A stretch of DNA of 29,312 nt, taken from positions 1-29,312 of the IMG/VR virus record IMGVR_UViG_2778261593_000009; one strand, written 5' to 3'. The DNA comes from a virus (Duplodnaviria > Heunggongvirae > Uroviricota > Caudoviricetes). Positions 6,161 through 17,483 of this stretch are shown here, piece by piece; position 1 is the stretch's first letter; each line of letters opens with the position of its first letter. The notes below the pieces were generated by a model. It made no database searches. It saw nothing but the letters and a program-made list of their open reading frames with translations, and had not been told where the DNA came from. The position numbers were made by a program, and so were the translations under genes.

Positions 6161-8983
6161 ATGACGGCAGAGCACATCAGGGACTGGCAACAACCGCGCC
6201 ACGCAGTGGGGCGTGAAGGAACGGGGATCCCCGCTCCTGAATCCGCGCTTTCCTCCTGGCTGGATGCCTACCGGGCAGAGAACGAGCGCCGCAAGGAAAT
6301 GGCTGATGCGGCGTTCTCCGCCACGCCGCTGGGCAACCTGATTAATAAAAGCCTGGACGCACAGGAAAAACAGGACAAAACCATCACACTGGCAGGAGAC
6401 GCCAGAAAACAGGCACGCGGCGCAGTGGATGAAGCCATGGCCTCGCTGCGCCTGCTGCCGTCCTATCTGCGCGATCCGCTTATTCGCCACCTCTCCTTCC
6501 TGCGCAAAAAACAGGAAGCCGATCGCCGGAAAGGCAAAAAGAGCTGGCAGGCGGAACGCTATGCACGCGGAACCCTGCGCAAAATATTCGAACGTCTGGA
6601 CCGCACCGATCACCGCTGGCTGACACCGGGTTATCGCTCCCTTGCCGGACGCGAACGCCTGGACGATTTGCTTTACCTGCCGCAGCTCAACAAACACCAG
6701 ATACAGACGCTGGCCACCATGACGGCGGCGATGTTCAGCAGCACCTTCGAAAAACTCTGCGATGGCTTTGGCGCGACCGATGGCGAGCTGACCATGGATG
6801 TAACGCTGAAGGCGTATCAGATGCTGGCCCGCATGGCGTTACACCTGCACGCCATGCCTCCACATTATGACGCACTGACAACAGACAAAGACCGGAGGAA
6901 CGAACCAGACACGGAGCTGCTGCCGGGCGCAATCCTTCGCCTGACCTGTGCGGAATGGTGGAAACGCAAACTGTGGCTGTTACGTTGCGAGTGGCGGGAA
7001 GAACAACTCCGCGCCGCCTGTCTGGTTTCCAGAAAAACATCACCCTATCTGAGCCAGGACGCGTTAAGCGAGTTTCGCGCACAGCGCGAGAAAACACGCG
7101 ATTTCCTGAAAAGTTTCATGCTGGAAAATGAAGACGGGTTCACGATTGATCTCGAGACGGTGTATTACGCGGGAGTAAGTAACCCGGTTCACCGTAAGGC
7201 AGAAATGATGGCCACCATGAAGGGACTGGAACTTCTGGCCGAAGCCCGTGGCGACAGAGCGGTGTTTCTGACTGTCACCTGCCCGTCAAAATACCACGCA
7301 ACAACGGAGAACGGTCATCCGAACCCCAAATGGAACGGGGCCACCATGCGCGACTCCAGCGATTACCTGGTTAACACATTTTTTGCGGCGGTCCGCAAAA
7401 AACTGAACCGCGACGGTCTGCGCTGGTATGGCATCCGCACGGTGGAGCCTCACCATGACGGCACTGTGCACTGGCATATGATGGTCTTTGCACATCCGGA
7501 CGAGATTGAAACCATCGTGTCCCACGTCTGCGATATTGCCATTCAGGAAGACCGCCACGAGCTGGGCGATGACATAACTCCGCGTTTTAAGGCGGAGTAC
7601 GTAGACGGCTCAAAAGGCACACCAACCAGCTACATCGCCACCTACATCGGAAAGAACCTGGACAGCCGCGCCGTGGATGGCATCGACCCGAAAACGGGCA
7701 AGCCACGCGTTGACCACGAAACCGGAAAATCAATGGCCGAGAGCGTGGAACGCGCCATCGGCTGGGCGCGCCTTCACCGGGTCCGCCAGTTCCAGTTCTT
7801 TGGCATTCCCTCCCGTCAGGTGTGGCGTGAACTCCGCCGCCTTGCCAGCCAGATGGCACGCAACCCGGAAGGCCCGCAACGGCTGAAGGATGACGCAATG
7901 GATGCGGTTCTTGCTGCCGCTGATGCCGGGTGTTTTGCCACCTACATTGAAAAACAGGGTGGCGTACTTGTTCCGCGCAAGGACTACCTGATTCGCACAG
8001 CCTACGACCTCGCAGATGAGCTGAACGATTACGGCGAACAGAGTGTACAGATTTACGGGATCTGGTCGCCACTCATCGGGGAATCCTCCCGTGTGTGCAC
8101 GCACCCGGATAACTGGAAGCTGGTAAGACGTAAACCGGAAGCGGAAGACAGCACCCACGAAAATGGTTTTGACCTTCAGGGCGGCCCTGCCGCCCCTTGG
8201 ACTCGTGGCAATAACTGTCCCCGTGTACAGGAAACAGGCAACAGCGGGACAGAACTGTCGGAAGAGCAACCAACACCGTGGCCGCAGATCCCTGACAGCG
8301 TTGATGTGGATGAATGGATGCGCTCACTGAAACGGCACGAACGCCGGGCGCTGATGCGTTCGCTGCGTGACAAACAGGCAAAAAACAGCAGTGATGAAAT
8401 GCAGAGCTGGACACAGAGCCGCAAACAGCCGCGACCTTTGCCTGATAACCACGAGTTACTCGCTAAAGAATGGCGGGAGTCTGCTGAATCTCTCGGCCTG
8501 CATATTGGTGAACAGCAGATGCAGCACCTGTTACGGGGCGGCAGTCTGTACGTTGACGGCAGCATCATTGCACCGCAGGGATTTGAAATTGTACGCAAAC
8601 CGGATACCCGCCCGGACAGCCGAATCACGCAGCTCTGGCAGCGCCTGAGCCGTAATCACGGCGTAAGCAGCACGGAGATCCGCCATAACCCGGTCGCCAG
8701 TTATCTGGAACAGCTAGGGGCATCAGACCCCGAAGCCGCCGCACGCCTGGCATCCACACTTCAGCAAGACCAGAACACCATGAAAACACCCGTTACCGTG
8801 CTTTCTGACATGCTGCGCGCCATCCGTGACGCAGAGCACGCACAGAGAATCAGTGAAACCACTGAACGCGCCCGCCGCAAAGCAAACCTGCTGCGGGGTG
8901 GCCTGACCAGTGGAAACAAAAAACAGACAGAAACGGGATTCACAAATCCCGTAAATGAGCAAAAAACGCGCCGCGATATATGA
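6161..8983 (+). CDS. A: Rolling-circle replication initiation endonuclease, P2 gpA-like
   Basis: HUH-type motif VEPHHDGTVHWHMMVF and paired tyrosines YIATYIGKNLD, matching the conserved motifs of P2 A protein; 940 aa. Confidence 0.85.
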   Translation: MTAEHIRDWQQPRHAVGREGTGIPAPESALSSWLDAYRAENERRKEMADAAFSATPLGNLINKSLDAQEKQDKTITLAGDARKQARGAVDEAMASLRLLPSYLRDPLIRHLSFLRKKQEADRRKGKKSWQAERYARGTLRKIFERLDRTDHRWLTPGYRSLAGRERLDDLLYLPQLNKHQIQTLATMTAAMFSSTFEKLCDGFGATDGELTMDVTLKAYQMLARMALHLHAMPPHYDALTTDKDRRNEPDTELLPGAILRLTCAEWWKRKLWLLRCEWREEQLRAACLVSRKTSPYLSQDALSEFRAQREKTRDFLKSFMLENEDGFTIDLETVYYAGVSNPVHRKAEMMATMKGLELLAEARGDRAVFLTVTCPSKYHATTENGHPNPKWNGATMRDSSDYLVNTFFAAVRKKLNRDGLRWYGIRTVEPHHDGTVHWHMMVFAHPDEIETIVSHVCDIAIQEDRHELGDDITPRFKAEYVDGSKGTPTSYIATYIGKNLDSRAVDGIDPKTGKPRVDHETGKSMAESVERAIGWARLHRVRQFQFFGIPSRQVWRELRRLASQMARNPEGPQRLKDDAMDAVLAAADAGCFATYIEKQGGVLVPRKDYLIRTAYDLADELNDYGEQSVQIYGIWSPLIGESSRVCTHPDNWKLVRRKPEAEDSTHENGFDLQGGPAAPWTRGNNCPRVQETGNSGTELSEEQPTPWPQIPDSVDVDEWMRSLKRHERRALMRSLRDKQAKNSSDEMQSWTQSRKQPRPLPDNHELLAKEWRESAESLGLHIGEQQMQHLLRGGSLYVDGSIIAPQGFEIVRKPDTRPDSRITQLWQRLSRNHGVSSTEIRHNPVASYLEQLGASDPEAAARLASTLQQDQNTMKTPVTVLSDMLRAIRDAEHAQRISETTERARRKANLLRGGLTSGNKKQTETGFTNPVNEQKTRRDI

Positions 8984-9023
8984 AGCGCGCACAAAACAGG
9001 CGAAAGCGGGAGTTCAGAATCCC
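8935..9023. promoter_or_regulatory. Two copies of an imperfect palindrome flanking the parM promoter region; candidate ParR-binding centromere/operator (parC-like)
   Basis: GGGATTcacaAATCCC (about 8935-8950) and GGGAGTTCAGAATCCC (about 9008-9023), both followed by GTAA. Confidence 0.35.
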
Positions 9024-9058
9024 GTAACCGATTAATTAATCAACATAAGGAAATCGAC

Positions 9059-10018
9059 ATGAAAATTTGTATCGACGACGGCTCCACCAACATCAAGCTG
9101 GCATGGACTGAGAACGGCGAACGCCGCAACGCCATCAGCCCGAACAGCTTCAAGTCGGAATGGTCAGCGCCGTTCGGTGGCACGCAGCCCGCGAACTACA
9201 TGCTTGATGGCGTGCGCTATGGTTTTGATCCGGTCAGCGATCGCTTTGTCCAGACGACCGACACGCAATACCAGTACAGCGATGTGAATGTTATTGCCAT
9301 TCATCATGCGCTGGTCAAATCAGGCATCACACCACAGGAGGTGGATGTGGTTGTCACCCTGCCACTGAGCGAGTATTTCGATACAAACGCACAGCCGGAC
9401 ATGGCCAACATCAGCCGCAAAAAAGCGAACGTTATGCGCCCGGTGGAGTACCAGAACGGCGAAGCATTCACTATCCGTAACGTGCGGGTTATGCCTGAAT
9501 CCATTCCGGCAGGCTTTAAAGCACTGGCTGACATGAGTCCGTTTGAATCCCTGCTGATTGTGGATTTGGGCGGAACCACGCTGGATGTGGCAAAGGTTCA
9601 GGGGCAACTGGCAGGTATCAGCCAGGTGTTTTGCGATCCACACGTAGGCGTTTCTCTGATGGCCGATGCCGTGCTGTCGGTGATGGCCACCAACGGTATG
9701 CGTACCAGTCACCACATCGCTAATACCATTATCGAACATCGCCACGATGAAGCCTGGCTGCGCCAGCACATCCACAATGACGCGCATTACGCCAGCCTGA
9801 TGGCAGTTATTCGTGAAAAGGAGGAAACACTGAAACAACGCGTGATCCGCGCGCTGGCGGGTTTTTCGGGTTACGGGCGGGTGATGGTTGTCGGTGGAGG
9901 GGCGGAGATTGTGGCACCCGCCATCCGCGAAGCCTGCGGAGTTAATGCGACTTTCATCGCGGACGGGGTGCCACAGTTTGCTCTGGTTAATGGGCTGTAC
10001 GCAATGGACAAGGAGTAA
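9059..10018 (+). CDS. parM: Actin-like segregation ATPase ParM (StbA)
   Basis: N-terminus MKICIDDGSTNIKLAW and motifs DVNVIAIHHAL, VMPESIPAG, LIVDLGGTTLD, FSGYGRVMVVGGGAE, LVNGLY closely parallel plasmid R1 ParM as I recall it. Confidence 0.85.
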   Translation: MKICIDDGSTNIKLAWTENGERRNAISPNSFKSEWSAPFGGTQPANYMLDGVRYGFDPVSDRFVQTTDTQYQYSDVNVIAIHHALVKSGITPQEVDVVVTLPLSEYFDTNAQPDMANISRKKANVMRPVEYQNGEAFTIRNVRVMPESIPAGFKALADMSPFESLLIVDLGGTTLDVAKVQGQLAGISQVFCDPHVGVSLMADAVLSVMATNGMRTSHHIANTIIEHRHDEAWLRQHIHNDAHYASLMAVIREKEETLKQRVIRALAGFSGYGRVMVVGGGAEIVAPAIREACGVNATFIADGVPQFALVNGLYAMDKE

Positions 10019-10022
10019 ACCA

Positions 10023-10334
10023 ATGACGACACCAACCAGACGGATAAGTTTCTATCTGAAGCCCGCCGCCGTCAAGAACGAAGGCGAAGCATGCGCCTGG
10101 CTGGACAGCCTTACACCAGAAGCCCGCAAAAGCGGCCAACGCGTGGCTTTTCTGGCCGGGCTGGCACTTCTGAAAATGAATCCGGCAGAGGCTTACCGAC
10201 TGGCTGCATGGGCTGATGATGAAGCGTTATCAGTGACACAGACCAGGACAGAACGCCCCGCATCACAGCCAGTATCAACCGCACAGATAACCAGCCAGAT
10301 GGCCGGGAATATCCAGGCGTTATTTCCTGAATAA
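10023..10334 (+). CDS. parR: ParR-like centromere-binding adaptor
   Basis: Small gene immediately downstream of parM with AGGAG SD; ISFYLKP...AFLAGLALL resembles the R1 ParR N-terminal pattern. Confidence 0.6.
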   Translation: MTTPTRRISFYLKPAAVKNEGEACAWLDSLTPEARKSGQRVAFLAGLALLKMNPAEAYRLAAWADDEALSVTQTRTERPASQPVSTAQITSQMAGNIQALFPE

Positions 10335-10460
10335 CACAACATCAGGGCATATTTGCCCTGATATCCCCTCTCAAACAAGGCAGCAACAAACTGCCCGTTG
10401 AATAACACAAATTACATGTTATGATTAACTCATAAGTAACCCCCGTTTGTGTCTTACGTT

Positions 10461-10835
10461 ATGAATGATCAAGATTATGGGCTTGATACCCTATTGGATA
10501 TGCACGGCTACCAGCACCACATGGATAATGGCTACTGGTGGAAGATTGAAGCCTACCGGGTCAGCCCAAGCCCATTCAGACCCCACGGGATACGTTACAA
10601 TCTGACATTACATGACCAGTACAATTCCCGCATATTTGGGATGGATAATGCTCATGGAATAAAACCACCGAAGAAGGGCCGTTTCACAGGGAAATTAACT
10701 GTTTACGACCATGTGCACCGCACAACATTTGACAAAGGCTATCCCTATGAATTCATTTCTGCGGAACAGCTTTTATCTGACTTCTTCGATAACGTAGATC
10801 GCATCATTGACGAAATCACAAGGGGGAATCAATGA
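10461..10835 (+). CDS. Hypothetical protein, first gene of a coupled two-gene module
   Basis: Track ORF starts at GTG 10449; first ATG at 10461 (MNDQDYGLD...); His/Tyr/Trp-rich; I recognise no family. Confidence 0.55.
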   Translation: MNDQDYGLDTLLDMHGYQHHMDNGYWWKIEAYRVSPSPFRPHGIRYNLTLHDQYNSRIFGMDNAHGIKPPKKGRFTGKLTVYDHVHRTTFDKGYPYEFISAEQLLSDFFDNVDRIIDEITRGNQ

Positions 10836-11209
10836 AAGCCCGTATCGGGATTATCCCTGAAAATATCCTCCGCCAGCGGCTACTGGATGTCGCCAGAGGA
10901 AAACGTAAACCACTGCCAGATGAACCAAAAGTATGGTTTTCTTCACTGCACGCTGTAGGGCAAGCTCTGAGTAACGAAAACATTGCTCTGTTACGTCTGA
11001 TGGATGAAGAAAAACCTCAAACAATGACAGAGTTGGCAGAAATGTCAGGCAGGAAACTGAGCAATCTTTCAGTAACCTTAAAAATGCTGAGCGGCTACGG
11101 TTTTGTCAGCCTGGAAAAGAAAGGCAATACCATTCTCCCGAAAGCATTATTCACCGATTTTGAAATCATCATTGATCCATCTGTCGGAACCACTCATCGG
11201 GCCGCCTGA
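10832..11209 (+). CDS. Putative winged-helix DNA-binding protein, second gene of the module
   Basis: ATGA overlap with the upstream gene; HTH-like segment MTELAEMSGRKLSNLSVTLKMLSGYGFVSLEK. Confidence 0.55.
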   Translation: MKARIGIIPENILRQRLLDVARGKRKPLPDEPKVWFSSLHAVGQALSNENIALLRLMDEEKPQTMTELAEMSGRKLSNLSVTLKMLSGYGFVSLEKKGNTILPKALFTDFEIIIDPSVGTTHRAA

Positions 11210-11384
11210 TCCCCACCAAACCAGGGCGATAATCACGCATCGCCCTGCTGCACAATAGTGCACAAAAAACGCGCTTTTTCTGCGCGCAGGTGACGGGGGA
11301 ACAGTCCGCGCTTCAGGGGTAAATGGCACCTCCTGAAAGATGCCACAGCATCATAATAGAATGAGCGCGTTGTTCACGACACAC

Positions 11385-11442
11385 GCAAAAACAAGAAAAC
11401 CCGGAACGGGTGCGCAAATTCTTTGTGCGCCCGTTCTGGGTT
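11385..11442 (-). terminator. Rho-independent terminator downstream of ogr
   Basis: Long inverted repeat CCGGAACGGGTGCGCA ... TGCGCCCGTTCTGGG preceded on the + strand by an A-rich run (U-run on the - strand). Confidence 0.55.
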
Positions 11443-11462
11443 GGACAAGCGAAGCGCGTCAG

Positions 11463-11720
11463 CTATCCAGCCTGCAACAGCTCCAGCGCCATCTGTTTTT
11501 CTTCCGGGCGCATCCGTTCAATCAACAGCTTTAACACACCGTTATCCAGCCCGCTGGGCACCAGTGTGTGCGAGTAGGTCAGATTCATCACCCAGGTATG
11601 TCCGCACTCGAGACGGGTGCAACGGTAATACACATCAGCAAACTGATCGGTTTTCCAGGCTGTTTTCTCAATCACTGCACGAGCACCACAGCAATGACAC
11701 CGCGCTTTCTGTCTGCGCAT
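11463..11720 (-). CDS. ogr: Ogr/Delta-family zinc-finger late transcription activator
   Basis: CxC(C) ... C-x4-C spacing (RCHCCGARA ... YYRCTRLECGHTW) like P2 Ogr; start at MRRQKA preceded by GGAGGTGG. Confidence 0.75.
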   Translation of the reverse strand: MRRQKARCHCCGARAVIEKTAWKTDQFADVYYRCTRLECGHTWVMNLTYSHTLVPSGLDNGVLKLLIERMRPEEKQMALELLQAG

Positions 11721-11785
11721 TTTCCACCTCCCGGAACAACGTTTTACTGCTGCTGATTTTACCCGCTCCTTCTCCATGTCGCACA

Positions 11786-12820
11786 TCACTCCGTGGCTTC
11801 ATTAAATTCAAGAATAAATTCCACCTGCCCCAGTCGCCTGATATCAGGGTCACTATTGATTCCCTCCATAATCAGGCGGCGCATCGGAATAACCTCATCT
11901 CTGTAATATGCCTCGCGGGATTTCAGCGGATCACCAAGCCCGGCCGTATTTGCGGGAATGATGCCGGCAAGTCCGGGTGGAAAACGGTGCGCAACGAGCT
12001 GATCCTGGGCACTGATGGTTTTTATATTCAGGAACTCATCTTTTGTACCTGAATCCCCGATAGGGATCACCTTAACGCCTTCTTTGTCTCCGCCAGGTAT
12101 ATTGATAAACATGGATTTAAAATTGCCCGCCCCTTTTGACGCCTCTATCTTTTTACGGAATTCCGCCTCGAGCTCGGGATCCATGTCCGGGTCAGTGGAA
12201 TACAGGATATAACCAAGATGTGCGCCGTTCTTGTAATACTTGCGGCGAAAGCGGGTGGCATCCACATTCAGCATGGCAGATTCCATCCCGTGAATATAAT
12301 CCGGGACACCGTAAACCTGCTGTTGTGGGTCATAAATTGCCACGAACACCACTTCGCCTGGCGGGTAAACGAGATCTTCCAGTGCCGCCTGCACAATCAC
12401 CGTGCCACCTTCGTTGTTGCGTCGCAGGTACAGAGAAGGCAACGTATGCAGGCGCACCACCCGCCCGAAGCCATTGCGCACTTTAAGCAGCCCCATATCC
12501 CCGAATATCAGCAGATTGGTCACTGCTGCCGCCATGGCGGCGTGTGTCATACCACCACCACCCCGAAAACCCTGCATGATCATATTCACGCGCGCACGCA
12601 ATACCGCGCCGTGATACGGTGCGATATTGGACAACATGGCGAGATCCATGCGCTCAATGGGCGGCGTGTACCAGCCGTTATAGCCATCCCAGAGCGAGCC
12701 GTAATAACAGCCCCATGCAGCGACCGGTTCCGGGTCACCAAATTCAATAAACGTCATTTTGCTGGCTGTTTTTTTTGCCACGCCATCGTGTAACACGGGG
12801 TATTTTTTCTTTTTACTCAT
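11786..12820 (-). CDS. Q: Portal protein, P2 gpQ-like
   Basis: 344 aa, the size of P2 Q; position upstream-adjacent to terminase on the strand opposite the head genes. Confidence 0.8.
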   Translation of the reverse strand: MSKKKKYPVLHDGVAKKTASKMTFIEFGDPEPVAAWGCYYGSLWDGYNGWYTPPIERMDLAMLSNIAPYHGAVLRARVNMIMQGFRGGGGMTHAAMAAAVTNLLIFGDMGLLKVRNGFGRVVRLHTLPSLYLRRNNEGGTVIVQAALEDLVYPPGEVVFVAIYDPQQQVYGVPDYIHGMESAMLNVDATRFRRKYYKNGAHLGYILYSTDPDMDPELEAEFRKKIEASKGAGNFKSMFINIPGGDKEGVKVIPIGDSGTKDEFLNIKTISAQDQLVAHRFPPGLAGIIPANTAGLGDPLKSREAYYRDEVIPMRRLIMEGINSDPDIRRLGQVEFILEFNEATE

Positions 12821-14600
12821 CTGACAGGATCCATGTTGATTTGCGCTTGTGCTTATAGTTCAGGGGTTCATTACTTGCGGCATGAGCTATGGCAAAGAAG
12901 ATGTCAGCGTGCCCGGTTTCTTCGCTACGTTCGGCGGTGAAAGTGACTTTATTGCCGCTGTTGGTGGATTCCTGACGAATGGCCAGGAATGATGCCGGAA
13001 TATCCGTGGCTTCCTCATCCCACTCAATACGGTTGGCGTAAACCAGATCCAGCATCTTCATCACCAGGCGGTTTTTGGATTCCACGCTGTAATGAATGGC
13101 CACTGTTTCACGGCGGGCAAATCCCTGAACCAGCTCAAAGACACCGTAGCCAAGACCGGTGACGTCGATGCCGATAAACGTCATGTTATAGCGCGCCTTA
13201 ATGCCGCGGATACGCTCTGCCATAAACTGGAATGACATGCTGCGCCAGTGGTGTTTTTCCAGCACGCGGAATCGTTCTGCCGCAACCAGCGGCGGTGCCA
13301 GCACAACAAATGTGGCGTTATCGCCGGAGCGCGCAGGATCAAAGCCGCCCCACACCTCACGGTTACCAAATGGCATGGGCTCTTCCGGGTGAAAATCCTC
13401 CCACGTACTGACATCAACACCACAACGCACAAGATCATCGAATTTAAAGACGCTCTCTTTGTCATCCACAAACACACACATAAACAGCATATTGAACGCT
13501 GTTTCGTTGTATCTCTCGCGCAGCTCGTTGATATCAGCAAGGTTAAAGCCGCCGGCAATGGCATCTTCCAGCGTAACCACATAGCGCCACTGACCATCCG
13601 GACATTCACGCCCACCATCGCGCAGCTCATCAAAGGATGGAAACTCAACCCCTTTTCGTTTCGGATCGCCTTTGCGCCATTCATCGCCAGACCAGAACGG
13701 GTAGCCCTGGTGTGTTTTGGATGACGGCGTGGAGAAATAGGTAATACGCCAGTGTTTATGGGTGGCCATCCCTGATGCCACTTCATTGAGACGGCGAAAA
13801 CCGGGGATCCACAGGTATTCATCAATATACAGGTGGCCGCTGTTTGACTGCGCTGTGTTACTGTTGGTCGCCAGAAAATACAGTTCAGCCAGATTACTTA
13901 ACTTAACCGGATTGCCTTTAATGGGAATGCCAAACTCTGTTTGTGCAATTTTTACAATATAAGTACGGAACACTTCGGCCTGACGTTTTGATGCCGATAA
14001 AAATATCTGTGTGTCGCCGGTTAATACTGCATCTTCAAATGCCTCAAACGCGAAGTAATACGTCGCCCCAATCTGGCGGGATTTAAGCAGGTTGCGTACA
14101 CGGCGGAATTTGTTTTCACGCAGATGCAACTGATAAGCAAACAACTTTTTCGTAAACGGCTCAAAACTTTCAGCAGTCAGTCCGGAAACGTCATTAGTTT
14201 TGCGGGGACGCTCTTTCTTACCTGCACCTTTTTCTCCGCGTTCTTCTTTTCCATAACGGCCAGGCTGGGGAATGTCCACTCCCATTCGCGCAATCTCAGC
14301 CATTCGTTCCGTGTGCTTGTTTCTGACCGACATCAGTTTGACGTGATGACCAATCAGGCGATCAAGCTCATCGTGTTCTTCCTGGGTCTTATGGTCACGT
14401 TCCGCCAGTACAGCGAGACGCCGGGCGATAACATCTTCCACGCCTTCCGTATTGAGCTGCGTGTACCACTCAAACTTTGTCGCCCAGTAATAAACAATTC
14501 GCGGGCTGTTCAGTCCGAGTTTCTTTTGTATTTCTTTTGGTGTGTGCCTTTTCAGATAGAGTGATTTTGCTGCGGCAATAACTTCTTCAGAATAAGCCAT
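12813..14600 (-). CDS. P: Terminase large (ATPase) subunit, P2 gpP-like
   Basis: 595 aa; divergent from the scaffold/capsid operon as in P2; 8-nt overlap with Q. Confidence 0.8.
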   Translation of the reverse strand: MAYSEEVIAAAKSLYLKRHTPKEIQKKLGLNSPRIVYYWATKFEWYTQLNTEGVEDVIARRLAVLAERDHKTQEEHDELDRLIGHHVKLMSVRNKHTERMAEIARMGVDIPQPGRYGKEERGEKGAGKKERPRKTNDVSGLTAESFEPFTKKLFAYQLHLRENKFRRVRNLLKSRQIGATYYFAFEAFEDAVLTGDTQIFLSASKRQAEVFRTYIVKIAQTEFGIPIKGNPVKLSNLAELYFLATNSNTAQSNSGHLYIDEYLWIPGFRRLNEVASGMATHKHWRITYFSTPSSKTHQGYPFWSGDEWRKGDPKRKGVEFPSFDELRDGGRECPDGQWRYVVTLEDAIAGGFNLADINELRERYNETAFNMLFMCVFVDDKESVFKFDDLVRCGVDVSTWEDFHPEEPMPFGNREVWGGFDPARSGDNATFVVLAPPLVAAERFRVLEKHHWRSMSFQFMAERIRGIKARYNMTFIGIDVTGLGYGVFELVQGFARRETVAIHYSVESKNRLVMKMLDLVYANRIEWDEEATDIPASFLAIRQESTNSGNKVTFTAERSEETGHADIFFAIAHAASNEPLNYKHKRKSTWILSDE

Positions 14601-14830
14601 AAACTACCTGTGGAATTTATTTTAATGGGTTTTCATCTTTTTCCGGTTCGTTCCGTAGCGTTCCGTAATATCCCATTATTTGCCGCAGGCATTTTTTTAA
14701 CGATTATCTGTTTTCGGTATTTTTCGGATATATGCGCATATCCGAAAGTACCGGAAATTAATCAGATGACGACGTTTTCATTTCTCCGTTAAATAACGCC
14801 AGTTTAATTTTTATCAGCGGATTAATTCAG
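14601..14830. promoter_or_regulatory. Divergent late promoter region between P and O
   Basis: AT-rich 230-bp intergenic region; inverted repeat TTCGGAT-n10-ATCCGAA (about 14723-14746) containing palindrome ATGCGCAT; direct repeats CGTTCCGTA. Confidence 0.5.
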
Positions 14831-15727
14831 ATGACGAAGCAGAAAACAGACTGGGTTGTGGTTGCCACATCAGGCCCCACCATCGACGGTCGGGAAATTG
14901 ATCCGAAGTGGCTGACGGATGCCGCCGAGGTTTACAACCCGGACGAGCGAGCCGCCATGCTCTGGCCATATCACGCCGATTCCGGATGGCGTGCCTTCAC
15001 CAATAACTACGGCATTGTTGATGCCCTGAAAGTCGAAAAATTTGGTGAAAAGGTGCAGCTTAAAGCACGCCTGATCCCAAATCGCTTCCTGATTGAAGCC
15101 AATAAGGCCGGGCAGAAACTTTTTACCTCCATTGAAGTGCGGGAAAACTATCTGGGCACGGGCAAATTCTTTGTGTCCGGTATCGCCGTGACGGATACCC
15201 CAGCCAGCATTAACACTACACGCCTGCAGTTTTCCATGGGGGAAGCCATCCATATGGGCAACGCAGAGGCGCTGAATTTTACGCTGCAGCCTGATGATGA
15301 GCAGGCCAAGCGCAACTTCTTCTCCCGCTTCTTCTCATCTGACAATCACCAACAGGGAATTTACCAAGCCATGAACGAAGAACAGTTCAGCCAGTTAATG
15401 GGTGCCATTAATAAAACCAGTGAACGCCTGGACGAGCTGGAAAAAAACGTCGCGCAGTTCAGCGCGAAGGATGCCCCGAAAGATACCGGTGATAACAAGC
15501 CGGAAGGCAGCACCGGCGATCAGGGGCAGGACAACGCAGAACAGAACAACAAGGACGACAAAACCTTCACGCTGACCACCGAGCAGGGCGAAAAGCTGTT
15601 CTCCACAGTGAACGCCATCGCGGAGAAGGTTACCAGTATGGAAACCGCATTTGCTGAACTCAGCAAGGACGCCACGAAGCTGCCGGGCAACAATCCGGCC
15701 GGTGGCGAAACTTTTAACCTGGTGTAA
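14831..15727 (+). CDS. O: Capsid scaffolding protein, P2 gpO-like
   Basis: 298 aa with acidic, low-complexity C-terminal half; first gene of the rightward head operon. Confidence 0.75.
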   Translation: MTKQKTDWVVVATSGPTIDGREIDPKWLTDAAEVYNPDERAAMLWPYHADSGWRAFTNNYGIVDALKVEKFGEKVQLKARLIPNRFLIEANKAGQKLFTSIEVRENYLGTGKFFVSGIAVTDTPASINTTRLQFSMGEAIHMGNAEALNFTLQPDDEQAKRNFFSRFFSSDNHQQGIYQAMNEEQFSQLMGAINKTSERLDELEKNVAQFSAKDAPKDTGDNKPEGSTGDQGQDNAEQNNKDDKTFTLTTEQGEKLFSTVNAIAEKVTSMETAFAELSKDATKLPGNNPAGGETFNLV

Positions 15728-15741
15728 CCGGAGAGAGCGCA

Positions 15742-16755
15742 ATGAATTTCACACCAGAAGCACAAAAGCTGGTTAATCGCTATATCAGCGAACTGCAAAA
15801 AACATTCAGTGACTGCGAACGCTCGAGCGATCGTTACTTTTCACTGACCGAACCGCGCAGCATTGCCCTGCGTAAAGCCCTGCTGGAAAGCACGGAGTTT
15901 CTGAGTTTCATCACCTGCATGGACGTTCCGCACCCGCAGGGGCAGGTCGTCACCGTGGGCGAATCCACACTGCGCACCGGTCGCGTGAAAAGCGGTCGTT
16001 TCGCTAAAGGTTCGGGCATCAAAGGCAACGAATTTAAACTCGTTGAAACTGATTCCTGCTGCGTGATCACCTGGGAACAACTCGCCATCTGGGCGAATGC
16101 CGGCAGCCCGCAGGAATTTTTCAACCTGATGAACTCCGCCGCCGTCACCAACTTTGCGCTGGATATGCTGCGCATTGGCTTTAACGGTAAAACAGCAGCG
16201 GAAAACTCTGACCCGGAAAGTCATCCGAACGGCGAAGACGTCAACATCGGCTGGCATGAAATCGCCAAAAAGTGGGGAGAACAGCCCGGCAATACCTCCC
16301 GTATTCTGACAGACGCCGTTACCCTGGGCGAAGGCGGCGATTATGTCGGTCTTGATGCCATGGCCTCAGACCTGATCCGCACTTACATCCCGGCACAGTA
16401 TCACAACGACCCACGACTTACCGTACTGGTCGGCGCAGACCTTGTGGCTGCTGAAGAACTACGCCTCTACAACAAAGAGGATAAGCCTACCGAAAAAGTG
16501 GCCGCACAGTTGCTGACAAAGAACATTGCAGGCCGCAAGGCTATCATTCCGCCGTTTATGCCGGGCAAACGTATGGTGGTGACCATGCTGCCAAACCTGC
16601 AGATCCTGACGCTGAAAGGCTCCCGCCGCCGCAAGGCAGAAGATGTGGGCGATCGCAAACAGTTCGAAAACTCATACTGGCGTTATGAGGGGTACGCCCT
16701 GGGCGATCCGGATTTATATGCTGCCGTGGATGAGTCTGCGGTCACCATCTCCTGA
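15742..16755 (+). CDS. N: Major capsid protein, P2 gpN-like
   Basis: Segments FNGKTAAENSD and GEGGDYVGLDA parallel recalled P2 N; synteny. Confidence 0.8.
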   Translation: MNFTPEAQKLVNRYISELQKTFSDCERSSDRYFSLTEPRSIALRKALLESTEFLSFITCMDVPHPQGQVVTVGESTLRTGRVKSGRFAKGSGIKGNEFKLVETDSCCVITWEQLAIWANAGSPQEFFNLMNSAAVTNFALDMLRIGFNGKTAAENSDPESHPNGEDVNIGWHEIAKKWGEQPGNTSRILTDAVTLGEGGDYVGLDAMASDLIRTYIPAQYHNDPRLTVLVGADLVAAEELRLYNKEDKPTEKVAAQLLTKNIAGRKAIIPPFMPGKRMVVTMLPNLQILTLKGSRRRKAEDVGDRKQFENSYWRYEGYALGDPDLYAAVDESAVTIS

Positions 16756-16772
16756 TAAACGGAGCGCACGGT

Positions 16773-17483
16773 ATGCCAACGCCAATGCAGCGACAACGTG
16801 CCCGACAGATGGATGAGCGCCGTGCGGCGCTCATGACCAGAACAGACGGGCGCGCCGTCAGCACAGAGAGTCAGCACATTAAGCTGCTGGCACTGGATAA
16901 CGATGTCAGACAACTGCACAACATGGAGCTGCTGTCTGACAAGCTGGAATTCAAGCGGAACACGCTGCTGCCCCGCTGGCTGCCACACGCACAGGCTTAT
17001 CTGGAGGGGGAACGCGTCTATCAGAATCCCATTCTGGTGTACTGCATCATCTGGCTGTTCGATACCGGGCAGTTTGAGATGGCGCTGCGGTGGGCTGACA
17101 TTGCCATTGAGCAGGGGCAAAAGACGCCGGAGAACTTCAAAAGCGAGCTGCCAACGTTTGTGGCCCATTTCATTCTTGAATGGGCAGAAGCCGAAGCTGA
17201 ACGCGGGAACAGTATCGCGCCATATTTTCAGCAGGTGTTTGAAAAAATCCGCGACAAATGGCGCGTGAATGAACGCCTTGCTGCCCGCTACTGGCGCTTT
17301 GCAGGCATCCTGCTGCTGCGCGGCGATGACGGCAAGCCACAGGCCAGCGCAATTAACGATCCGGAGAGACTGCAACAGGCCGACCAGTGCCTGGAACGGG
17401 CTGCCTGGCTGCATCCCAAAATTCAGGTGAAAACCCTGCGCCAGCGCATTGCCGCAAGACTGCGCGCGTTGCAGGGCACGTAA
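16773..17483 (+). CDS. M: Terminase small/endonuclease subunit, P2 gpM-like
   Basis: 236 aa; synteny after N; GGAG SD. Confidence 0.7.
   Translation: MPTPMQRQRARQMDERRAALMTRTDGRAVSTESQHIKLLALDNDVRQLHNMELLSDKLEFKRNTLLPRWLPHAQAYLEGERVYQNPILVYCIIWLFDTGQFEMALRWADIAIEQGQKTPENFKSELPTFVAHFILEWAEAEAERGNSIAPYFQQVFEKIRDKWRVNERLAARYWRFAGILLLRGDDGKPQASAINDPERLQQADQCLERAAWLHPKIQVKTLRQRIAARLRALQGT

Follow-up and report, generated by a model that had tools for sequence, protein, structure and literature searches.

Background

The closest described counterparts of the locus reported here are the TumE-TumA toxin-antitoxin (TA) systems. Six gammaproteobacterial DUF6516 genes were toxic in Escherichia coli and were neutralized by the adjacent gene, and TumE from Allochromatium tepidum lowered the incorporation of 35S-methionine (Durairaj et al., Nature 2023; PMC10584680). 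An RNase activity of TumE was proposed, and left unproven, in this founding paper. The six validated pairs belong to subcluster 1a, in which TumE is mostly located downstream of its partner, and the synthetic TumA fragments were 289 to 388 bp in length, including vector overlaps (PMC10584680); by our estimate, these fragment lengths would correspond to validated TumA partners of roughly 76 to 109 amino acids (aa). No later functional work on the TumE family, and no defense phenotype for TumE or DUF6516, was found in the literature searched.

HigBA, MqsRA, and HicAB are type II TA systems in which the toxin gene comes first and the DNA-binding antitoxin is the larger protein. To our knowledge, TumE has no sequence or fold relationship to the toxins of these systems and has a fold of its own.

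Temperate phages related to P2 have an interval between gpA and gpQ that is a cos-adjacent defense hotspot, where the genes old and tin are located in P2 itself (Rousset et al. 2022; PMC9122126). The presence of this hotspot in P2-like phages is likewise supported by PMC13586616.

Gene content and position of the module

The window analyzed here is the whole 29,312-nt stretch of IMG/VR record IMGVR_UViG_2778261593_000009 (Caudoviricetes). Two open reading frames (ORFs) were read on the plus strand, one from a GTG at 10449 or an ATG at 10461 to 10835 and one from 10832 to 11209. The ATG at 10461 was taken as the true start of the first ORF because ATGAATGATC is kept in the Salmonella copy of the locus, in which the upstream GTG is not kept, and because gene callers give a length of 124 aa for a homologue with 94% identity. 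Gene 1 (10461 to 10835, 124 aa) and gene 2 (10832 to 11209, 125 aa) overlap by the ATGA at 10832 to 10835, and the translationally coupled two-gene module described in the first-pass annotation is present as described. A Shine-Dalgarno-like AGGGGG, read from the sequence, precedes gene 2 on the plus strand (10821 to 10826, within the end of gene 1 and 5 nt before the ATG at 10832), and no comparable motif was read ahead of gene 1. With 149 and 210 database homologues, respectively (E ≤ 0.001), genes 1 and 2 are considered real genes rather than chance ORFs.

Upstream of the module are ORFs predicted to encode a replication protein (Phage_GPA, 6161 to 8983), ParM (StbA_N/ParM_N, 9059 to 10018), and a Plasmid_stab_B/ParR-like protein (10023 to 10334). 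Downstream are Ogr_Delta on the minus strand (11463 to 11789) and then the portal and large terminase genes. This order (GPA, ParM/ParR, module, Ogr, portal) is the cargo position of the P2 gpA-gpQ hotspot, in agreement with the earlier placement of the pair after parMR and before ogr/Q, where P2 carries tin and old (PMC9122126). The P2 cos core sequence was absent from the window at up to 3 mismatches. The ParM and Plasmid_stab_B pair (9059 to 10334) is of a plasmid type, located inside a P2-like prophage, and is conserved in P88-like phages.

The GC content of the module was 0.443, versus 0.567 in the left flank with the replication and partition genes and 0.523 in the whole window, and only 2.8% of equally long segments were as AT rich, bearing out the AT richness noted from the sequence. 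An Rfam scan of 10200 to 11500 for RNA antitoxins or riboswitches returned only a subthreshold snoRNA match, which was taken as chance. Beyond the stop codon of gene 2, a hairpin with a 9-bp stem (CAGGGCGAT...ATCGCCCTG, 11222 to 11247) lies in conserved backbone and lacks a T run. A terminator-like site on the minus strand (GCGCGC...GCGCGT followed by TTTTT, 11287 to 11269) would halt leftward transcription ahead of the cassette.

Family membership of gene 1

Gene 1 had no significant match when it was scanned directly against Pfam, NCBIfam, PADLOC, and PHROGs. With hmmscan against Pfam, neither the 124-aa nor the 128-aa form matched any family even at E ≤ 10, and the gathering threshold of 23.4 bits for PF20126 was not reached. 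PF20126, which is named "Toxin TumE" in Pfam, has a model length of 81 positions. Taken alone, these empty scans would suggest a protein of no family, a reading that is overturned by the annotations of homologues. A homology search with gene 1 returned 149 proteins (E ≤ 0.001) with 50 to 94% identity, nearly all of which had precomputed PF20126 assignments, and several were named "toxin-antitoxin system TumE family protein" or "DUF6516 family protein." One of these (P0012), which is 60 to 62% identical to gene 1 depending on the alignment, scored 33.8 bits against PF20126 (cutoff, 23.4 bits). The Salmonella homologue with 94% identity (P0001) failed the local Pfam scan and had only a precomputed TumE match labeled weak. 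Among 39 close relatives of gene 1, 14 matched PF20126 at E ≤ 0.01 and 25 were missed. Since so few reach this level, the clade of gene 1 lies at the edge of the Pfam TumE model, which, judged by these scores, has a sensitivity gap for it.

A profile of the clade was searched against 1.84 billion representatives and matched 1,010 clusters (50% identity) at E ≤ 0.001. All 10 remote representatives sampled were above the Pfam TumE threshold (23.6 to 40.7 bits), and a hidden Markov model (HMM) built from these 10 Pfam-positive TumE sequences alone scored gene 1 at 140.5 bits (E = 1.5e-45). Because all the sampled representatives are Pfam positive and their HMM recovers gene 1 at this score, gene 1 (10461 to 10835, plus strand) is placed in the TumE/DUF6516 family, and this membership is regarded as established, by transitive homology at the level of sequence. 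The gene is hence annotated as a tumE-like gene encoding a predicted toxin, on the basis of its PF20126-bearing homologues, the HMM score of 140 bits, and the AlphaFold2 (AF2) model. The first-pass annotation recognized no known toxin family in this protein, and a placement outside the known toxin families is not supported by this result. No homology of gene 1 to a phage structural or regulatory protein was found. When distant TumE sequences were used as queries, the six validated proteins, sought by organism name, were not among the 120 matches listed.

Predicted fold and invariant residues of gene 1

The 124 residues of gene 1 include 8 His, 9 Tyr, and 2 Trp, consistent with its initial description as a 124-aa protein rich in these residues. 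The AF2 model (pLDDT, 82; pTM, 0.77) has an alpha+beta arrangement that combines a beta-sheet with a helix at the N terminus and a long helix at the C terminus, and no structural relative of the predicted fold was found in the PDB. Twelve residues (H42, H51, D62, H65, D83, H84, H86, D91, Y46, Y96, R45, and R57) were invariant in 39 sequences. In a more divergent set of 20 sequences with 27 to 46% identity, D62, H65, D83, and H84 were kept in at least 90% and H86 in 20 of 20, so that the motifs D62-N-A-H65 and D83-H84-x-H86 are retained across this range. The DNAH and DHxH motifs likely form a metal-binding or catalytic site, judging from this pattern of conservation. Such an assignment is consistent with DeepFRI predictions for TumE (PMC10584680).

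The winged-helix partner and its pairing with TumE

Gene 2 (10832 to 11209, plus strand) is annotated as a winged-helix gene of the HVO_A0114 family, based on matches to PF25212 and phrog_11214, on fold matches, and on its pairing with TumE. Residues 31 to 103 matched PF25212 (HVO_A0114) at 57.8 bits, above the gathering threshold of 27.6 bits, and the protein matched phrog_11214 at 1e-19, with weaker matches to MarR/ArsR-type families. In the AF2 model (pLDDT, 84), the winged helix spans residues ~39 to 105, and the best PDB fold matches were ArsR/SmtB/CzrA/MarR repressors. The description of the second protein as a 125-aa winged-helix protein is therefore upheld by PF25212, by the model, and by the ArsR/SmtB/MarR fold matches. 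Additional elements are a conserved N-terminal strand-helix (residues 2 to 21) and a C-terminal strand. In source databases, homologues of gene 2 are called either "HVO_A0114 family putative DNA-binding protein" or "MarR family transcriptional regulator." Scans of gene 2 against PADLOC gave just weak generic helix-turn-helix (HTH) matches to CasR/CARF regulators.

TumE was directly followed, on its own strand, by a homologue of gene 2 in every locus compared, whether genomic (85 of 85), distant metagenomic (4 of 4), or viral (IMG/VR; 18 of 18). The genomic loci include 80 species-representative genomes, which belong to Enterobacterales, Legionella, Vibrio, Alteromonadales, and Burkholderiales, among other groups. 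The metagenomic loci, which include deltaproteobacterial ones, had gaps of 5 to 15 nt between TumE and the partner in the gene calls. The pairs span Gamma-, Beta-, and Deltaproteobacteria, and the flanking genes vary from locus to locus. TumE and the winged-helix gene are thus an obligate unit of two genes only. Gene 2 is predicted to be the antitoxin and the autorepressor of the operon, that is, TumA in the functional sense.

Predicted promoter and operator-like palindrome

A sigma-70-like promoter (TTGAAT-16 nt-TATGAT, with TG before the -10 hexamer) was predicted at 10398 to 10425 on the plus strand by a consensus scan, with 9 of 12 positions matched, in a scan whose sites were no more numerous than in shuffled sequences. 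This site, whose two hexamers are retained in the Salmonella copy, is the sole promoter-like one upstream of the module. An operator-like palindrome (TTATGA-TTAAC-TCATAA, 10419 to 10435) overlaps the -10 hexamer and is a motif found across the family. In the window, the palindrome has a single perfect copy (10420 to 10434), versus 0.05 expected.

Among 85 distinct regions upstream of TumE homologues, 77 contained the motif TAT(G/C)A-N5-T(C/G)ATA with at most 1 mismatch, preceding the start codon by a median of 28 nt, versus a background of 0.007 per region in the rest of the same loci. Most of the eight upstream regions that failed this count had the motif at two mismatches. Because a general statistic for the best palindrome of a region gave only weak separation between upstream and control regions, the specific motif count was used instead. 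An earlier operator candidate, ATAACA-N9-TGTTAT, which falls between the -35 and -10 hexamers, was set aside when the comparison across loci put the conserved palindrome a few bases further on.

Two variants of the palindrome were found, TTATGA...TCATAA in 28 loci, mostly of Enterobacterales, and TTATCA...TGATAA in 48 loci. The change from G to C between clades is symmetric in both half-sites, and this joint change fits a dimeric DNA-binding protein. The position of the palindrome over the -10 hexamer suggests autorepression by the winged-helix protein at a putative operator. The predicted recognition helix of gene 2 is S77-N-L-S-x81-T-L-K84, in which residue 81 is encoded at 11072 to 11074 of the window. 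Where the operator is of the TATCA/TGATA type, this residue was always Arg (46 of 46 loci); where it is of the TATGA/TCATA type, the residue varied (V, N, A, T, and others). Residue 81 may be a specificity determinant, which is offered as a lead, as the association is confounded by clade structure and phylogeny.

Mobility and distribution of the cassette

Comparison with P88-like (Xuanwuvirus) prophages of E. coli (L086 and L087) revealed a swapped cargo cassette at 10371 to 11204 (plus strand). Backbone identity of 96% ends at 10370 and restarts at 11205, and an ead/Ea22-like gene occupies the place of the cassette in the E. coli prophages. A stretch shared with P2-like prophages of Salmonella (L001 to L004), 10398 to 11232 on the plus strand, extends from the promoter to 23 bases past the stop codon of gene 2. 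It was 87% identical at the DNA level over 835 bp, whereas the backbones of these prophages were only 66 to 72% identical. In P2-like prophages from IMG/VR and E. coli, the module proteins were 80 to 97% identical, versus 30 to 53% for the portals and 36 to 60% for GPA, and the module was always located in the interval from GPA to the portal. The pair thus recurs at the same locus in other P2-like prophages, of Salmonella, E. coli, and IMG/VR, a check that had been proposed from the sequence. A cassette of ~0.83 kb is horizontally mobile between unrelated P2-like backbones.

Related modules with 76 to 79% DNA identity were found in 13 to 16 of 5,426 complete E. coli genomes, and the close E. 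coli copies were chromosomal in 17 of 17 places. The module is not core to related phages, given this low frequency and its absence from prophages that are otherwise 96% identical. No related module was found in 50,697 deposited phage genomes. TumE homologues were found on 31 plasmids, 12 of them conjugative.

Several features of the surrounding prophage were also observed. An exact 12-nt direct repeat, TGAATAACACAA, occurs at 10328 to 10339 and 10399 to 10410, 71 nt apart. The first copy lies on the stop codon of the parR-like gene, in phage backbone, and is found in the E. coli prophage L086 as well. The second copy lies on the -35 hexamer of the module, and TGAATAAC likewise starts the Salmonella copy. 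From its placement, the repeat may represent microhomology at the junction of the cassette. The prophage has a mosaic structure in which 7301 to 10370 (replication and ParMR) is 96% identical to E. coli P88-like prophages and the region from 11364 onward (ogr, portal, and terminase) has no blastn match to them; this distribution of identity suggests recombination at or near the hotspot or cos region. Another IMG/VR record, IMGVR_UViG_2648501669_000002, was 98.9% identical to window positions 6464 to 16832 (10.4 kb), with an identical TumE protein, and probably represents the same or a sister prophage, to judge by this identity. In E. coli TUM9803 (NZ_CP135671.1; locus L094, 5042 to 6534), the TumE/HVO_A0114 pair and a convergent pair encoding a RelE-family toxin and an HTH protein are stacked in the gpA-gpQ hotspot.

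Comparison with described systems

The pair in the window resembles TumE-TumA in the homology and similar size of gene 1 and in its arrangement as a bicistron with a predicted DNA-binding partner. The alpha+beta model of gene 1 may also correspond to the fold described for TumE, two helices packed on an antiparallel sheet, for which no PDB relative was reported (PMC10584680). It differs in that the toxin gene comes first, whereas TumE is mostly downstream in PMC10584680. The partner is a 125-aa winged-helix protein of the HVO_A0114 family, in contrast to validated partners with inferred lengths of ~76 to 109 aa, one class of which is RelB-like. In addition, the window copy is phage borne and has no direct Pfam match. 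Judged by fragment lengths, the partner in the window is probably of a different class from the validated TumAs. Because the window pair differs in gene order and partner, the experimental demonstration of toxicity and neutralization stops at subcluster 1a.

The nearest annotated relatives are E. coli pairs in RefSeq (for example, WP_029490435.1 and WP_029400441.1 in strain TUM9803), which RefSeq labels as a TumE family toxin and an HVO_A0114 family DNA-binding protein. These pairs have the same genes, the same order, the same 4-nt overlap, and the same gpA-gpQ hotspot location, with 76 to 79% DNA identity and 80 to 90% protein identity to the window pair. They differ in being carried by other prophage backbones, and their names are automatic annotations.

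With HigBA, MqsRA, and HicAB, the window pair shares the gene order and the predicted autorepression from a palindrome at the promoter. Generic features of type II TA systems are present, namely, small coupled genes, a palindrome at a predicted promoter of their own, a patchy distribution, and mobility as a unit. Like P2 old and tin and other cargo of the gpA-gpQ interval, the pair is cos proximal, variable, and AT rich and has its own promoter, as predicted; it differs from these genes in having no homology to Old (ATPase-TOPRIM) or Tin.

Proposed function and alternatives

The reading that we favor, with a probability of roughly 0.78, is that the module is a TA-like operon of the type II kind from the TumE-TumA superfamily, one that is self-contained and moves horizontally and that a P2-like (P88/Xuanwuvirus-related) prophage carries among the accessory cargo of its gpA-gpQ hotspot. 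In such an operon, TumE would act as a growth-arresting toxin that blocks translation, by analogy with A. tepidum TumE, and it would probably do so via a metal-dependent hydrolytic site that the conserved motifs DNAH and DHxH would form. The winged-helix protein would bind and neutralize TumE through its conserved N-terminal strand-helix extension, and a dimer of the same protein on the palindrome would repress the operon. Translational coupling, together with a good ribosome-binding site for gene 2 only, would hold the antitoxin level with the toxin or ahead of it. If the partner were lost or titrated, on loss of the prophage or on infection by another phage, TumE would be freed, and the cell would stop growing. 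As for the earlier proposal of a new TA pair, the TA reading is retained as the best one, and the novelty is not, since the name TumE dates from 2023 and is already applied to the E. coli homologues in RefSeq.

A pair that is not a TA system at all, with a small nontoxic enzyme or nucleic acid-binding protein next to its dedicated transcriptional repressor, has in its favor a toxin-first architecture that falls outside the experimentally validated set, a partner that resembles an ordinary ArsR/MarR-type regulator, and the lack of a TumE call for gene 1 in the direct Pfam scan. This arrangement is highly improbable given the strong homology to experimentally toxic proteins (PMC10584680), and strict mobility as two genes, with no third, regulated target, is a habit of TA systems that is seldom seen in regulator-enzyme pairs. 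What role a TA-like operon would serve in the prophage is a separate matter. Addiction, in which cells that lose the prophage are killed and the pair forms a plasmid-style stability region with the adjacent ParM/ParR genes, appears unlikely to be the main one. The pair does directly follow ParM and Plasmid_stab_B, its translational coupling and predicted autoregulation are typical of addiction modules, and the plasmid-borne TumE homologues (31 plasmids, 12 conjugative) fit such a role. However, the same cassette occurs in P2-like prophages of Salmonella and E. coli without ParM/ParR, and P88-like prophages have ParM/ParR without the cassette; because each is found without the other, their association is not conserved. 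The exclusively chromosomal location of the close E. coli copies (17 of 17 places) also argues against addiction.

Anti-phage defense as the main role, by abortive infection or superinfection exclusion like that of P2 old and tin, with a competing phage triggering the release of TumE, has a better claim than addiction and is still somewhat doubtful. The gpA-gpQ hotspot holds many cargo systems that are proven to be defensive (PMC9122126 and PMC13586616), and the closest relatives of the pair (at least 80% protein identity, with flanks that could be judged) lie in this same hotspot of divergent P2-like prophages. Other neighbors point the same way, including the RelE/HTH pair that adjoins the E. 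coli TUM9803 pair and the NACHT, RlaP, nucleotidyltransferase, and BrnT-like genes that adjoin distant family members. In Helicase+DUF2290, a validated anti-phage system, the DUF2290 protein had a weak HHpred match to DUF6516/TumE (probability of 87.8%, E = 2.9, across the whole Pfam model; PMC9122126 supplement), and this link between profiles hints at a TumE-like fold serving as a defense effector. Set against these observations, location in the hotspot is circumstantial, as an ead/Ea22-like gene occupies the same site elsewhere, and the literature searched held no such phenotype for TumE/DUF6516. PADLOC-DB 2.0 had no model for gene 1 or its 39 relatives (no match for gene 1 or for 37 of the 39, and for the other 2 single matches with E > 0.03 that were considered spurious). 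A defensive role is compatible with the TA mechanism, as it concerns what the pair is for and not how it works.

A more specific version of the preferred TA-like operon combines several of these elements. The toxin-first TumE and HVO_A0114 pair would be a distinct branch of the superfamily that acts as an abortive-infection system of the P2 hotspot, and TumE would be a metal-dependent nuclease (DNAH/DHxH) with a fold that has no solved relative and that is perhaps reused in Helicase+DUF2290. We consider this combination speculative and rather less probable than a defensive role in general.

Implications

The family of the window pair is already known (2023), and close homologues are already annotated; what the locus adds is a phage-borne, toxin-first version with an HVO_A0114 partner. 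Because the Pfam TumE model misses gene 1 and about two-thirds of its close relatives, such a pair is easily mistaken for novel by a reader or an annotation pipeline. The loci compared here define a large and coherent subarchitecture, with the toxin first, an HVO_A0114 partner, and a palindromic putative operator in two clade-linked variants. They also provide experimental handles in the form of a putative operator sequence, candidate catalytic residues, and a natural predicted promoter. For P2-like phages, TumE modules join the list of cargo exchanged at the gpA-gpQ hotspot. If the pair is defensive, a TA family would be tied to phage exclusion, a result that would be useful and, given the hotspot, unsurprising.
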